Shown piece after piece: positions 47,903 to 61,601 of a stretch of 64,000 nt of DNA. The notes beneath the pieces are model-generated. The model had not been told where the DNA came from and ran no database searches. It was given only the letters and a program-made list of their open reading frames with translations. The DNA comes from Escherichia phage moha: sequence record MN850590.1. One strand, written 5' to 3'. How positions within the stretch are numbered: the first letter of the stretch is position 1; each line of letters opens with the position of its first letter. A program made the position numbers and the translations under genes.

Positions 47903-48265
47903 ATGAAAGCATATCAAATTCTTGAAGGTGCACATAAAGGCACTATTTATTTTGAAGACGGTACTCAAGCCCGGATTATTGTCTCTAAGACTTTTAAAGA
48001 AGACGCTATTGTAGACCCGGAAATTTTCTACGGTTTGAATGCCCGTGAAATTGAAATTGAACATCAACCTAAAGTTAAAATTGAAGGTGGTCAACACCTG
48101 AACGTTAACGTTCTGCGTCGCGAAACTCTGGAAGATGCAGTTAAGCATCCGGAAAAATATCCGCAGCTGACCATTCGTGTATCCGGTTATGCAGTTCGCT
48201 TTAACTCTCTGACTCCGGAACAGCAGCGCGACGTTATCGCTCGTACCTTTACTGAGAGTCTATAA
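47903..48265 (+). CDS. GrcA/YfiD-like autonomous glycyl radical cofactor
   Basis: 120-aa ORF with the glycyl-radical motif RVSGYAV near the C-terminus; the C-terminal roughly 60 codons are GC-rich with host-like codon choice. Confidence 0.8.
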
Positions 48266-48489
48266 TGGCTAAATTGATTATAGAAGGGTCTGAAGATGTT
48301 TTAAAATGTTTTGCCGCCTGGTTTAGTTGCTCAGGCGAGCAATCATTCACTGAAGCATTTAGAATGGGTGATATTACTGGAAACTATCCGACAACTGATA
48401 TCACTGTACGTGGATATGGTATTAATGAGCCTATCCAATTGGTCGAATATGACCTTGCCACCGATGAGGAAATTCCTTATGTCGATTGA
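48265..48489 (+). CDS. hypothetical protein (74 aa)
   Basis: TAATG overlap with the upstream gene. Confidence 0.5.
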   Translation: MAKLIIEGSEDVLKCFAAWFSCSGEQSFTEAFRMGDITGNYPTTDITVRGYGINEPIQLVEYDLATDEEIPYVD

Positions 48490-48745
48490 AGATATTAAAG
48501 GTTACAAACCGCACACCGATGACAAAATCGGTAAAGTGAACGCTATTAAAGATGCCGAAGTCCGTCTTGGATTGTTGTTTGATGCTCTGATTGAAGAAGC
48601 ATATATCTTGAAAGAAAATGAAACAGAGCAACAAACCAAAGAAGATATGGATGCAGTGCAGGCTCTTAAGTATGCTAAGCAACATCTAAAAGAAGCCAGC
48701 ATGTGGGCATGCCGTGCAGTATTTCGACCTGAGGAAAAATACTAG
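48479..48745 (+). CDS. hypothetical protein (88 aa)
   Basis: Start taken at the ATG overlapping the upstream stop; the longer ORF-track frame from 48311 is probably not translated. Confidence 0.45.
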   Translation: MSIEDIKGYKPHTDDKIGKVNAIKDAEVRLGLLFDALIEEAYILKENETEQQTKEDMDAVQALKYAKQHLKEASMWACRAVFRPEEKY

Positions 48746-48954
48746 TGAAAATTGAAAGTTTGCAAGAATTCCAACGTATCATTAGCGAAGCCTGTACCGG
48801 TTACCACAAATATTTGCTCGATGACCAGGTTGCTTGTCTTGAAGAAGGCGAAATGCAGTACGCTGTCCAGCGCCTTGAACAAGTGAAAGAGTTTTATCCT
48901 GCAATGGTAGAAATTTGTTCGATAGCTGGAAAACTCACACCATTCCAAGAATAA
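48745..48954 (+). CDS. hypothetical protein (69 aa, GTG start)
   Basis: GTG start preceded by GAGGAAAAA. Confidence 0.4.
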   Translation: MKIESLQEFQRIISEACTGYHKYLLDDQVACLEEGEMQYAVQRLEQVKEFYPAMVEICSIAGKLTPFQE

Positions 48955-48958
48955 AGTA

Positions 48959-49009
48959 GTTTACTTCTCCTCTAGTTGTGTTACTATAGACCTGTCAACT
49001 AGAGGAGAA
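48959..49009 (+). promoter_or_regulatory. early-type promoter with a 14-bp Shine-Dalgarno-sequestering inverted repeat, upstream of regB
   Basis: GTTTAC, left arm TTCTCCTCTAGTTG (48965-48978), TG-t-TACTAT -10, right arm CAACTAGAGGAGAA (48996-49009). Confidence 0.65.
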
Positions 49010-49015
49010 ATCAAA

Positions 49016-49474
49016 ATGACTATCAATTCAGACGTTTTTATCCGCCGTAATAAACTCCGTCGAATCTTTGAAACGGAGTTCCGCAAAATAAATGCCAGTA
49101 TAAAAGATGCTGCAAAGTCTCTTGGACTACCAGGCTTTCATATCAAGTATTCTCAACATCTCTTAGATCGTGCCATCCAGAGAGAAATAGATGAGAATTA
49201 CGTTTTTGAATTATTTCATAAAGTAAAAAATCATGTTAAAGAAGTTGCAGAATTTTTATCAATGCCGGCACGTCCAGATGTTGATGAAGATTTTGTCGAA
49301 GGTGTCGAATATCGCCCAGGCCGTTTAGAAATAACTGACGGAAATCTTTGGTTAGGACTTACAGTTTGTCGCGAAAATCCGGCATTCAAAATGAAGACTC
49401 TTCAATGTAGAATGGCTATTATTAACAGTAAACGACTACCAGGAAAAGCTTCTAAAGCAGTGATTAAAATCTAG
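49016..49474 (+). CDS. regB: RegB endoribonuclease
   Basis: 152-aa ORF (T4 RegB is 153 aa) recognisable as RegB, located between denV and tk. Confidence 0.8.
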   Translation: MTINSDVFIRRNKLRRIFETEFRKINASIKDAAKSLGLPGFHIKYSQHLLDRAIQREIDENYVFELFHKVKNHVKEVAEFLSMPARPDVDEDFVEGVEYRPGRLEITDGNLWLGLTVCRENPAFKMKTLQCRMAIINSKRLPGKASKAVIKI

Positions 49475-49482
49475 AGGTAAAC

Positions 49483-50025
49483 ATGAGAAAAGCACTACTC
49501 GCTGGTCTATTTGCTCTTTCATTATCAGCACATAGCTCCGAGCATACTTTTAGTAATGTCCAACTCGATAACTTGAATTATGCTTATCAGTTTGGGGAAC
49601 AGTTTTCTAAGGATGGAAAATTTAAAACGCATGAAAATATGCATAAGAAAGGACTTGGATACATAATGGCCGCAATACTATGGCAGGAATCATCTGCCGG
49701 TATTAATCTTAAAGATAAGAAAGGTCACCATGCGTATGGAATGTTCCAAAATTATCTACCGACAATGAGGGCAAGAATTAACCAGCTTGGTTATAATATG
49801 ACTGATGCCCAAATTAAGAAAATGCTATCTAAGCGGTCTAATTCAGCCAGATGGGCTTATATCGAATTTTCTTATTGGTTAAATATACATAACGGGGATA
49901 TAAGAAAAGCTATATCCTCATATAATGCGGGATGGAAGACAAGTGCCGGAAGTAAATATGCTTCTGAAGTCCTAGAAAAGGCTAATTACCTTAAATCAAA
50001 TAAACTACTGGAAATAAAAGAATGA
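49483..50025 (+). CDS. secreted lytic transglycosylase (SLT-domain)-like protein (180 aa)
   Basis: N-terminal signal peptide (MRKALLAGLFALSLSAHS) and SLT-like motifs (WQESSAG, GMFQ, YNAGW). Confidence 0.55.
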   Translation: MRKALLAGLFALSLSAHSSEHTFSNVQLDNLNYAYQFGEQFSKDGKFKTHENMHKKGLGYIMAAILWQESSAGINLKDKKGHHAYGMFQNYLPTMRARINQLGYNMTDAQIKKMLSKRSNSARWAYIEFSYWLNIHNGDIRKAISSYNAGWKTSAGSKYASEVLEKANYLKSNKLLEIKE

Positions 50026-50369
50026 CCAAAATGTTGGCTTTAATAGTTGGCTTGGTTTCATTTAATGCTCTTGCTAATACTACATATACTGATGTAACGG
50101 AGTATACAAACAGAACGGCGTCTGATTATTGTGGTAAAAGTCAAGAGTGTAAAGTAGATTTTTCACAAAAATTGTTATATGCGTATAAAGACGGAGAAAA
50201 AGACGGGGCGTCTAGTAGGTTCAAGGCGTCTACCTTAATTAAAAGATACTATAAAAAATGGCAAATATTAGAATGCTCGGTGGCGGAACCTAAAGATAAG
50301 GCAGCATGCAATTCTATGGTGGACCGTCTAGTTGACTCTTATAATAGAGGACTTGCAGCAAGTGATTAA
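50022..50369 (+). CDS. secreted hypothetical protein (115 aa)
   Basis: Signal peptide (MTKMLALIVGLVSFNALA) and four cysteines; ATGA overlap with the SLT-like gene. Confidence 0.55.
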   Translation: MTKMLALIVGLVSFNALANTTYTDVTEYTNRTASDYCGKSQECKVDFSQKLLYAYKDGEKDGASSRFKASTLIKRYYKKWQILECSVAEPKDKAACNSMVDRLVDSYNRGLAASD

Positions 50370-50826
50370 AAACTATATCAAGGGCGATATTGTCGCCCTG
50401 TTTTCTAAAGGTAATAATATTGCTCATGGGTGTAATTGTTTTCATACAATGGGCGCGGGTGTGGCAGGACAATTAGCAAAGGCTTATCCAAAAATTCTGG
50501 AAGCCGATAAACTTCAAACCGAATTCGGAGACGAGTCTAAACTCGGGACTTATTCGGTTTATGAAAAATATTTTAAGACCCATAAAGCTTATTGCTTTAA
50601 TCTTTATACACAGTTTGAGCCGGGACCTAATTTTGAGTACTCTGCTTTAATGAATTGTATAATAGAATTAAATGAATTCGGAAAGAATAAGATAACAAAG
50701 CCTGTAATTTATATGCCAAGAATTGGTGCAGGTATTGGTGGTGGAAACTGGGATGTCATCGAAGAGATTTTAGATACGTATTCCACTAAACTAGAAATTG
50801 TGATTGTTGATTGGGAACCTAAATGA
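50362..50826 (+). CDS. macro domain (ADP-ribose binding/hydrolase) protein
   Basis: Motifs KGDIVALF, IAHGCNCFHTMGAGVAGQL and PRIGAGIGGG. Start is uncertain: GTG at 50362 lies 10 nt after a TAGAGGA Shine-Dalgarno, and the ORF-track start at 50332 is a TTG. Confidence 0.65.
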   Translation: MIKNYIKGDIVALFSKGNNIAHGCNCFHTMGAGVAGQLAKAYPKILEADKLQTEFGDESKLGTYSVYEKYFKTHKAYCFNLYTQFEPGPNFEYSALMNCIIELNEFGKNKITKPVIYMPRIGAGIGGGNWDVIEEILDTYSTKLEIVIVDWEPK

Positions 50827-51005
50827 AATTAACTAAAGAAGAGAAAGCTAAACTGTTCGAACTTATCCATGACCTATTGGATGAACAAGCAGCCACCAAT
50901 GCGTATGATGAATATGCTCCTTTAACAGATGAAGAATATCAAGCATTGATGGAATCATTTGACAGGAAAGAACAAGAACTCATTGACTACGTGAATTCAC
51001 TATAA
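50823..51005 (+). CDS. hypothetical small acidic protein (60 aa)
   Basis: ORF with start overlapping the upstream stop. Confidence 0.45.
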   Translation: MKLTKEEKAKLFELIHDLLDEQAATNAYDEYAPLTDEEYQALMESFDRKEQELIDYVNSL

Positions 51006-51014
51006 GGGACTCTT

Positions 51015-51596
51015 ATGGCTAGTTTAATTTTTACCTATGCCGCTATGAACGCTGGTAAGTCTGCTTCATTACTTACTGCCGCACATAACTATAAAGAACG
51101 TGGCATGGGTGTATTAGTTCTTAAACCGGCTATTGATACTCGCGATTCAAAAGGTGAAATAGTCTCTCGTATTGGTATTCGTCAGGACGCCAATATAATT
51201 ACAAAAGACATGGATATCTTTGAATTTTATAAATGGGCTGCAGCACAAAAGGATATTCACTGCGTATTTGTTGACGAAGCTCAGTTCTTAACTACTGAAA
51301 AGGTGTATCAACTTAGTCGTATTGTTGACGTATACAATGTGCCGGTAATGGCATATGGACTACGAACAGATTTTAAAGGTAATCTATTTGAAGGTTCTCA
51401 AGCATTAATGGCTATTGCCGATAAGCTTGTTGAACTTAAAGGTGTCTGTCATTGTGGTAAAAAGGCCACAATGGTAGCTAGAGTCACGGAAGACGGACTT
51501 CCAATTACAGATGGCAGTCAAATTGAAATTGGTGATACCGATAGATATGTGTCATTATGCCGGAAGCATTGGAACGATTTGACAGGGTTGTTATAA
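51015..51596 (+). CDS. tk: thymidine kinase
   Basis: 193-aa ORF with a P-loop (AAMNAGKSASL) and a C-terminal CHCGKKA zinc motif; recognisable as T4 Tk and the same length. Confidence 0.93.
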   Translation: MASLIFTYAAMNAGKSASLLTAAHNYKERGMGVLVLKPAIDTRDSKGEIVSRIGIRQDANIITKDMDIFEFYKWAAAQKDIHCVFVDEAQFLTTEKVYQLSRIVDVYNVPVMAYGLRTDFKGNLFEGSQALMAIADKLVELKGVCHCGKKATMVARVTEDGLPITDGSQIEIGDTDRYVSLCRKHWNDLTGLL

Positions 51597-51848: not shown

Positions 51849-52151
51849 ATGGCCTTAAGAGCGATAGCTGTCATAGCGATGCTGGGGTTTTTTGCAGCAA
51901 CAACTCCTATCGTTGGTACTGCACATATCGACCCATATTTTGATAACTTTATGGAATCAGGGATTAAAAACGTATATACTTTGTTTGAAATTCAAAATGT
52001 CGAGAATTCTGAAAAATTCTATAAGTATATGGCAAAGCATTACAAAAATAGCCCCTGTGATGATGCATTTGAATGTTATGAACAAGGCATAAAAACTGCC
52101 AGACAATTTGCCGAGTTCATGAAAATAAAATTAGAGCCTACATCTATCTAA
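51849..52151 (+). CDS. rI: lysis inhibition regulator RI (antiholin)
   Basis: 100-aa ORF with an N-terminal signal-anchor and conserved DPYFDNFMESGI...FEC pattern; recognisable as T4 RI. Confidence 0.75.
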   Translation: MALRAIAVIAMLGFFAATTPIVGTAHIDPYFDNFMESGIKNVYTLFEIQNVENSEKFYKYMAKHYKNSPCDDAFECYEQGIKTARQFAEFMKIKLEPTSI

Positions 52152-54945: not shown

Positions 54946-55212
54946 ATGAAAAAATTAGTAATTGGTTTATTCGCAGTAATGATGGCATTCTCTGTTGGTG
55001 CTACCACAGGTGCAGGAGCTGGTGGTAACCAGTCTTCTGGGCCTTCCAATGGTTCGGTAAATGCATCACATTCTCAGGGTATTGAGAACATTAAATCAAG
55101 CTATATTAATAGCACGGCCGGACAAGCAACTGAAGCATGGTCAAAGGGTCGAGTAGTTACTCGCTCCGTATTCTGTGATATGCCTAATTATGTTGCTAAG
55201 TGCGATAAGTAA
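54946..55212 (+). CDS. secreted glycine/serine-rich small protein (88 aa)
   Basis: Signal peptide and a C-terminal cysteine pair; followed by a terminator. Confidence 0.55.
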   Translation: MKKLVIGLFAVMMAFSVGATTGAGAGGNQSSGPSNGSVNASHSQGIENIKSSYINSTAGQATEAWSKGRVVTRSVFCDMPNYVAKCDK

Positions 55213-60883: not shown

Positions 60884-61188
60884 TGAAACTACGTCTTTTA
60901 GAGGATATTGATATGAGCACTAATCATGGCTTGGTTAAGTTTATTGACGATAGTTCAAAGATTGAATTTGTTCAGCGAGATAAAATCCACGGTGAAGAAG
61001 AGTTCGTTCCTCCGGCATGGAACGAAATAATGAAAATGGTTGAACGACGTGAAAATGCTGCCAAATCGGCAGCAAAACATCCATGTCCGGAATGTGGAAC
61101 TATCCAAGTCCAACTGGTTAACTGGACCAGTGATAACTTGAAATTGAAATGCCGTAAATGCTTCCACAAATTTGAGAGAACATTATAA
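60883..61188 (+). CDS. zinc-ribbon small protein (101 aa)
   Basis: CPECG...CRKC motif. Confidence 0.5.
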   Translation: MKLRLLEDIDMSTNHGLVKFIDDSSKIEFVQRDKIHGEEEFVPPAWNEIMKMVERRENAAKSAAKHPCPECGTIQVQLVNWTSDNLKLKCRKCFHKFERTL

Positions 61189-61601
61189 TGAGATATAGCC
61201 TTCGTTGTTTTATCGCAGCTTTAGTTTTTGCTATTATTCCATTCATTTGGAACAGCCAGAATACTTACATGGAAACTAAAGTAATTCCTGTGGAGGTAGT
61301 GGAATTAATCTCAGGTCAATCTACAGGAAAATATTCTAAATTAGAATTTATTGCAGTCTATAAAGATGAGCAAGGACGAGTTTTTGACAGGCGTGTATCG
61401 CCATCGTTTTATACGCTTCTGAATAAAGGTGATACGATAGCTATAGAAATTCGTGAGATGGATATCAAACAAACTACCAAAGATAACTTGATTTGGTTCT
61501 TTGGTACAGTGTTGTTGGTTTCTATCTGTATCACAGGTTTTATTACATGTATTGTATTTGGCATTGCATATTTAATTGATGAAAGGAAAAATAATGTTTA
61601 A
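61188..61601 (+). CDS. hypothetical membrane protein (137 aa)
   Basis: N- and C-terminal hydrophobic helices. Confidence 0.5.
   Translation: MRYSLRCFIAALVFAIIPFIWNSQNTYMETKVIPVEVVELISGQSTGKYSKLEFIAVYKDEQGRVFDRRVSPSFYTLLNKGDTIAIEIREMDIKQTTKDNLIWFFGTVLLVSICITGFITCIVFGIAYLIDERKNNV

Follow-up and report, generated by a model that had tools for sequence, protein, structure and literature searches.

The vs.1 and vs genes of Escherichia phage moha

A stretch of 64,000 nucleotides from Escherichia phage moha (MN850590.1), referred to here as the window, carries at positions 49483 to 50369 two open reading frames (ORFs) that correspond to vs.1 and vs, a gene pair long known from T-even phages; the window is from an RB69-like Mosigvirus, and neither gene is new. 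The 3-kb stretch around the pair is 98-99% identical in DNA to RB69-type (Mosigvirus) phages, in which vs.1 and vs are annotated at the matching positions, and the order in the RB69 and T4 records is regB, vs.1, vs, tk.4, tk.2, tk, rI.1, rI (the regB-tk cluster runs in the window in the orientation opposite to GenBank). Both are real genes and not chance ORFs: vs.1-like sequence is found in 2060 phage records and vs in 795. The first gene belongs to phrog_600 (unknown function) and the second to phrog_1256, "valyl tRNA synthetase modifier". Vs.1 is predicted to be a secreted lytic transglycosylase, and Vs belongs to a family with the sequence features of exported proteins, contrary to its name. 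Coordinates are collected in Table 1.

An initial annotation, made from the sequence alone, had described the pair as translationally coupled secreted proteins that could serve superinfection exclusion, lysis timing or DNA entry. The ORF pair beginning at 49483 is there, with its ATGA overlap; the soluble lytic transglycosylase (SLT) motifs ascribed to the first product (WQESSAG, GMFQ and YNAGW) are all present; the second product has exactly four cysteines (C37, C43, C85 and C96); and a Sec-type pattern was found at both N-termini where signal peptides had been claimed. The interpretation fared unevenly: the SLT reading of the first protein stands but had already been published, whereas the second is nominally at odds with secretion, being the orthologue of T4 Vs (67% identity), a vs-region protein of cytoplasmic function of the kind the annotation itself had named as telling against it. 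As first described the pair adds little, because both T-even genes were already catalogued and the hint of the domain was already in print; the useful outcome is a testable contradiction between the name and the sequence of a widely propagated phage protein family.

Vs.1, a putative lytic transglycosylase

Mature Vs.1 is predicted to have ~162 residues (~18.7 kDa, pI 9.6) and contains no cysteines. From 128 clusters collected for the family, 37 diverse members with identities down to 40% were aligned; 34 of the 37 match Pfam SLT (PF01464) at E <= 0.01 (best E 1.3e-7), and many clusters of the family carry a precomputed PF01464 match, whereas NCBIfam gave no match for Vs.1 or for Vs. The motifs of family-1 lytic transglycosylases are E-S, G-x-x-Q and Y-N-A-G. 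Vs.1 has the first (the catalytic Glu followed by Ser) as W67-Q-E69-S70-S71-A-G and the second and third as G86-M-F-Q89 and S146-Y147-N148-A149-G150-W151, with Y159 as the downstream tyrosine, and E69, S71, G86, Q89, N90, Y147, N148, G150 and Y159 are invariant in the alignment. An AlphaFold2 model built on the family alignment (predicted local distance difference test, pLDDT, 90.4) has a lysozyme-like alpha-helical fold. The SLT match is marginal for the window protein alone and solid at the level of the family, and assignment of Vs.1 as a putative SLT enzyme is well supported by these sequence comparisons.

Sequences resembling vs.1 are spread among T4-like phages of Acinetobacter, Aeromonas and Vibrio and among more distant phages of ~157 kb (Salmonella Det7/S118, Dickeya Ds3CZ) and of ~87-90 kb (Escherichia JH2, Shigella Sf17), which, judging by the phage names, we take to be Ackermannviridae and FelixO1-like, respectively.

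The SLT similarity of vs.1 is not a new observation: a conserved marginal SLT match of vs.1 in six T4-like phages was published in 2006 (Nolan et al., PMC1524935), and that paper cites earlier PSI-BLAST results. No experimental test of Vs.1 function was found in the literature that could be searched.

Signal peptides of Vs.1 and Vs

Signal peptides were judged by a heuristic of our own for n-, h- and c-regions. A positive n-region, an h-region of 8-15 residues and small residues at -3 and -1 were found in both window proteins, Vs.1 beginning with MRK, ALLAGLFALSL and SAHS/SE, and Vs with MTK, MLALIVGLV and SFNALA/NT. The tripartite pattern is present in all 37 aligned Vs.1 homologues (in one of them behind a 5'-extended gene call) and a signal-like N-terminus in 40 of 42 full-length Vs-family clusters, T4 Vs having one likewise; the two clusters that lack it look like mis-called starts. 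In both families the pattern persists although the residues of the signal vary, which is usual for signal peptides. The Vs relative of Enterobacter phage PG7 has a lipobox, LSGC, at the cleavage position instead of A-x-A. The PG7 record (KJ101592) also has its vs-like gene (L007:2292-2619) split into two frames, 2292-2489 and 2434-2619, by either a frameshift or a sequencing error.

The N-terminus of Vs.1 might alternatively be a signal-anchor-release tether, and Vs.1 a virion-associated or lysis-stage murein hydrolase that assists DNA injection or final lysis, like T7 gp16 or phiKZ gp144; in FelixO1-like phages some distant homologues bear the annotation 'putative lysin'. Such a role is very improbable: with ~11 residues the h-region is short, and after it comes an A-x-S/A-x-A cleavage motif such as cleavable signals usually have, vs.1 lies in the regB-tk cluster away from the structural and lysis genes, the gene is non-essential in T4, and T4 gp5 and gp e already serve the injection and lysis jobs.

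The Vs family

Vs has a precursor of 12.9 kDa and a predicted mature form of ~97 residues (~11.0 kDa). It matches phrog_1256 at E 1.8e-35, PF26829 is recorded on a near-identical protein (P0121), and it has the same length as T4 Vs and the same position between vs.1 and tk.4, and its C-terminal SMVDRLVDSY-x-RGL is invariant. Searches with single sequences made the family look narrow, returning 8 clusters (word-indexed) or 7 proteins (exhaustive phmmer against 1.84 billion representatives), but the ORFs downstream of vs.1 in other phages and a profile search revealed a much broader family. Directly after vs.1, Acinetobacter phage DLP2, Klebsiella phage RCIP0102, Shewanella phage Thanatos-1 and Proteus phage PM2 encode a protein of 104-110 residues with a signal peptide, the pattern C-x4-5-C ... 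C-x8-C and a C-terminal Y/F-x-x-G-hydrophobic motif (Y-x-x-G-L in two of the four). Alignment of these divergent ORFs with the Vs alignment by hhalign gave probabilities of 91-94%, PHROGs likewise places them in phrog_1256, and the profile search returned 43 clusters, all with PF26829.

Conservation in the family is strongest at the cysteines. The four-cysteine pattern is present in the mature part of 41 of 42 full-length clusters, and in relatives with 19-32% identity nothing is invariant but the initiator methionine, the four cysteines, G58, L103 and G110. In the AlphaFold2 model (pLDDT 86, >90 in the mature part) Vs is a four-helix bundle (helices 14-37, 41-64, 69-85 and 90-114), and C37/C43 and C85/C96 bracket its two hairpin loops. 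The spacing of the second cysteine pair is x10 in the window protein and x8 in distant relatives, tracking the length of the loop, and this change fits predicted loop-closing disulfides. Neither Vs nor a complex of Vs with ValRS (valyl-tRNA synthetase) has a structure in the PDB, and PDB searches with Vs, the Vs profile and a member of phrog_4957 (see below) returned nothing or chance matches (metacaspase, argonaute, antibody light chain).

Gene order, overlap and transcription

A Vs-family gene directly follows vs.1 in T4, RB69 and IME08 and in Klebsiella, Proteus, Shewanella, Acinetobacter and Enterobacter phages; among Acinetobacter phage records, 69 have vs.1 and 69 have a Vs-like gene. 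In T4-like phages of Klebsiella, Shewanella, Proteus, Acinetobacter and Enterobacter the Vs-like gene is followed by a gene for a third signal-peptide protein, phrog_4957, with G-C-G and Y-x-T-Y motifs in all members and W-E-K-L-P-G-Y-P common to the enterobacterial ones. Since phrog_4957 comes next in many phages, this stretch of their genomes is predicted to be a run of genes for exported proteins. A phrog_4957 homologue in the window or at the T4 locus was considered and rejected, the weak matches being to hydrophobic N-termini only.

The ATGA overlap of vs.1 and vs, from which translational coupling had been proposed, is real but does not mark a special pair. In the RB69 annotation 7 of the 13 junctions of the cluster overlap, including vs/tk.4 (8 nt) and tk.4/tk.2 (4 nt); in T4 the vs.1/vs overlap is 8 nt, and in IME08 and Klebsiella phage PWKp16 (Marfavirus) the two genes abut without overlap. 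Because overlaps are usual in the cluster and absent in these two phages, coupling does not single out vs.1 and vs.

A scan of positions 48600-51100 for sigma-70-like consensus promoters found 6 sites against a shuffled mean of 8.3, none of them convincing between regB and tk.4. The absence of a promoter signal above chance in this interval is consistent with co-transcription, and a separate transcription unit for vs.1 and vs was dropped from consideration. A terminator-like hairpin lies at 50381-50399 on the plus strand (AGGGCGA-TAT-TGTCGCCCT, followed by GTTTTCT), 12 nt past the vs stop, within the 5' part of tk.4, and might serve to attenuate the regB-vs.1-vs transcript or to stabilise it.

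Fitness of vs.1 and vs insertions in T4

Transposon fitness values for the T4 genes were taken from Extended Data Table 6 of the T4 HIDEN-SEQ preprint (10.1101/2025.11.20.689424), in which vs and vs.1 are both non-essential (vs.1 saturation 0.88). Mean insertion counts in lysogeny broth (LB) were 26.6 for vs and 22.6 for vs.1, compared with 178.6 for regB, 652 for vs.3 and 289.6 for tk.4. Between LB and M9 glucose, vs had a log2 fold change of -2.19 (q = 0) and vs.1 one of -0.87 (p = 0.0055, q = 0.155); vs is the most depleted T4 gene in M9 glucose and was reported as the strongest conditionally important gene in minimal medium, regB insertions were mildly enriched (+1.17, p = 0.049) and the neighbours were otherwise near 0. 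Between K-12 and the clinical strain CFE299, vs.1 changed by -1.20 (q = 0.015) and vs by -1.04, most neighbours being unchanged. Insertions in vs.1 and vs share a mild fitness cost that is absent from neighbouring genes, together with a minimal-medium defect.

This pattern bears on whether Vs might be a dedicated periplasmic inhibitor or immunity protein that holds Vs.1 in check until lysis. In favour of this, vs.1 and vs are expressed together, export is predicted for the product of each, and Vs is small, helical and probably disulfide-bonded, as is the phage protein Spackle. If Vs were such an inhibitor, insertions in vs.1 would be expected to be neutral, yet they are about as scarce in LB as those in vs and more depleted on CFE299, and Aeromonas phage avDM4 has Vs.1 without Vs. 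A pure inhibitor was accordingly down-weighted: Vs as merely a brake on a harmful Vs.1 is disfavoured because loss of vs.1 is itself costly in T4, and we regard it as improbable.

The name and the sequence of Vs

The gene vs got its name in classical genetic and biochemical work on T4, for the phage factor that binds the cytoplasmic ValRS, and two literature summaries give this function (PMC8076793; preprint 10.1101/2025.11.20.689424). According to the textbook account, Vs.1 is an exported SLT enzyme with no assigned role, and Vs is the cytoplasmic tau factor that binds ValRS and alters its stability and its affinity for tRNA; the hydrophobic N-terminus of Vs would be unused for export or would serve as a transient tether, and the adjacency of the two genes would be a frozen T-even early gene order. 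In favour of this account, the T4 annotation has been propagated to the window gene, vs is most depleted in M9 glucose, where aminoacylation could limit growth, the regB-tk order is kept whatever its genes do, and some phages have vs.1 without Vs.

The cytoplasmic residence that the named function requires is not borne out by the features of the sequence. The canonical signal peptide in nearly all Vs clusters, the four invariant cysteines and the lipobox of the PG7 relative point to export, contrary to the name. Members of the Vs family also occur in Acinetobacter, Shewanella and Pseudomonas phages, whose hosts presumably have synthetases considerably different from E. coli ValRS; insertions in vs.1 show a fitness pattern like that of vs; and the binding of Vs to ValRS is not represented by any solved structure. 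When T4 Vs was produced at full length with an N-terminal His tag in the cytoplasm of E. coli, it proved insoluble (PMC8076793), which leans toward export. The T4 factor that binds ValRS was reportedly put at ~10 kDa by Muller and Marchin in 1977; mature Vs (~11.0 kDa) comes closer to this than the 13 kDa precursor does, which leans the same way. No paper joining valyl-tRNA synthetase, phage T4 and the periplasm was found in the literature that could be searched. The textbook account may well be correct, although we think the chances are somewhat against it.

We tentatively prefer a reading, to which we give a little less than an even chance, in which both proteins are exported: Vs.1, through Sec, as a lytic transglycosylase that acts on the murein of the host already early in infection, and Vs as a protein working alongside it in the envelope. 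The two genes would be co-transcribed with regB and tk.4 as part of a leftward cluster that is transcribed before DNA replication. Vs.1 would be made with a cleavable Sec signal peptide, released into the periplasm and active there as a small single-domain family-1 (GH23/SLT) lytic transglycosylase, in which Glu69 would protonate the MurNAc-beta-1,4-GlcNAc bond and then promote attack by the C6 hydroxyl, leaving 1,6-anhydro-MurNAc ends; host murein may thus be nicked or remodelled already early in infection and independently of the endolysin. Vs would be exported as a four-helix bundle of ~11 kDa with loops closed by disulfides C37-C43 and C85-C96 and would act in the envelope beside Vs.1, possibly in contact with it and most probably helping it as a partner or cofactor, not acting as a brake. 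The pair would make up a dispensable accessory module that raises phage fitness, most clearly in minimal medium. A more specific proposal, that Vs is a disulfide-bonded periplasmic protein forming with Vs.1 a conserved envelope module of the Straboviridae, joined in many genera by phrog_4957 as a third exported protein, is possible but on the unlikely side.

Several observations weigh against the envelope reading, beginning with the name of Vs itself. The order regB-vs.1-vs-tk.4-tk is kept as a whole although the functions of its genes are unrelated, so synteny is only weak evidence of a partnership. No Vs-like gene was detectable beside vs.1 in Aeromonas phage avDM4 or Citrobacter phage Margaery, and three Vs-family queries gave no matches in Aeromonas or Vibrio phages. 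The window Vs.1 scores 18.8 bits against Pfam SLT (E 0.0013, residues 61-154), below the gathering cut-off of 21.3, and PDB sequence and profile searches with Vs.1 and its family profile gave no match or chance matches only, so that any relation of Vs.1 to solved structures is remote. The four cysteines of Vs, which lie at one end of the bundle, could instead bind a metal in the cytoplasm. The low insertion counts in vs.1 could reflect a polar effect on vs, and the minimal-medium defect suits a translation-related role equally well.

If Vs and Vs.1 do form a periplasmic module, the textbook label of Vs is either incomplete or misassigned: ValRS would be modified by a tau factor encoded in another small ORF of the vs/tk region, or Vs would have an unexplained second life in the cytoplasm. 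The label "valyl tRNA synthetase modifier" now stands on well over a thousand phage genome records, including those of Acinetobacter, Proteus, Erwinia and Pseudomonas phages, and is mismatched with a family that as a whole looks secreted and disulfide-stabilised beside a secreted murein-cutting enzyme. Whether Vs acts on translation or in the cell envelope changes how the T4 minimal-medium phenotype is read. The envelope reading, if true, would also supply a first function for Vs.1, an enzyme that is widely conserved but unstudied and that would be at work on the host wall already early in infection.

Neighbouring genes and other features

Upstream of regB, the ORF at 47903-48265 (+) has a C-terminal glycyl-radical motif, RVSGYAVRF, and is vs.6 (GrcA-like in the RB69 annotation), and the ORF at 48479-48745 (+) corresponds to vs.4, which is presumably the anti-CBASS sponge Acb2. 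The downstream neighbour tk.4 has a GTG start, and the program-made ORF list extends it upstream to a TTG at 50332; the orthologue in T4 has lately received the name AdfM and is an anti-DarTG2 defence factor (preprint 10.1101/2025.11.20.689424). An 88-residue ORF at 54946-55212 (+) starts with an evident signal peptide, followed by a mature part rich in Gly, Ser and Asn, and a 137-residue ORF at 61188-61601 (+) has hydrophobic segments at its N- and C-termini; taken with rI (51849-52151), these suggest that the early region encodes several envelope-targeted proteins.

Table 1. Features of the vs.1-vs locus. Positions are those of the window, except in the last row, which lists loci of other phages.
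Feature	Position	Strand	Basis or remark
regB (endoribonuclease), upstream neighbour, outside the module	49016..49474	+	Pfam REGB_T4, E 2e-69; RB69 annotation
GAGG Shine-Dalgarno of vs.1, 5 nt before the ATG	49474..49477	+	Read from the sequence
vs.1, predicted exported single-domain GH23/SLT lytic transglycosylase	49483..50025	+	Precursor of 180 aa
Predicted Vs.1 signal peptide, residues 1-18, MRKALLAGLFALSLSAHS/SE	49483..49536	+	n-/h-/c-region heuristic; pattern in 37/37 homologues
Vs.1 SLT core, residues 61-154, with E69-S70-S71, G86-M-F-Q89 and Y147-N-A-G150	49663..49944	+	Pfam SLT match
GAA codon of Glu69, presumed catalytic acid/base	49687..49689	+	Invariant in 37 sequences
ATGA start/stop overlap of vs.1 and vs, 4 nt	50022..50025	+	Sequence
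vs, predicted four-helix bundle, PF26829/phrog_1256	50022..50369	+	Precursor of 115 aa; phrog_1256 match; identity to T4 Vs
Predicted Vs signal peptide, residues 1-18, MTKMLALIVGLVSFNALA/NT	50022..50075	+	Heuristic; 40/42 family clusters signal-like
Codons Cys37 to Cys43 (C-x5-C), around the helix 1/helix 2 loop	50130..50150	+	Invariant across the family; AlphaFold2 helix boundaries
Codons Cys85 to Cys96 (C-x10-C), around the helix 3/helix 4 loop	50274..50309	+	Family alignment; AlphaFold2 model
tk.4 (macro domain), downstream neighbour, 8-nt overlap with vs	50362..50826	+	RB69 annotation; Pfam Macro, E 2e-6
phrog_4957 members, 130-147 aa	L008:2309-2701; L009:2310-2753; L010:2296-2736; L005:2585-3010; L007:2616-3035

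Comparison with known systems

The closest known proteins are the orthologues in T4 and RB69. Vs.1 of the window is ~99-100% identical to proteins of RB69-type phages and 82% identical to T4 Vs.1; it shares the position of the RB69 and T4 proteins (NP_861805 and NP_049725, respectively) between regB and vs, and differs from them in nothing material. T4 Vs (PF26829, phrog_1256) is the orthologue of the window Vs; its label is cytoplasmic, whereas the features of the family are export-like.

Vs has a conceptual likeness to Spackle (Sp), which acts on the gp5 lysozyme, and to Ivy, PliC and PliG, in that a small exported protein would act on a periplasmic murein hydrolase. No similarity of fold or sequence was detected between Vs and Spackle, Ivy, PliC/MliC or PliG, and the T4 transposon fitness data speak against a purely inhibitory role of the Spackle type for Vs.

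The nearest bacterial family-1 enzymes to Vs.1 are Slt70, MltC, MltE and MltF (GH23) and above all small specialised ones such as EtgA. Compared with these, Vs.1 lacks a lipid anchor, a LysM domain and superhelical accessory domains; it comes from a lytic phage, is not coupled to any secretion machine, and carries a conserved N-terminal helix and hairpin specific to its family (residues 23-50), with invariant Q27, N30, A34 and G38.

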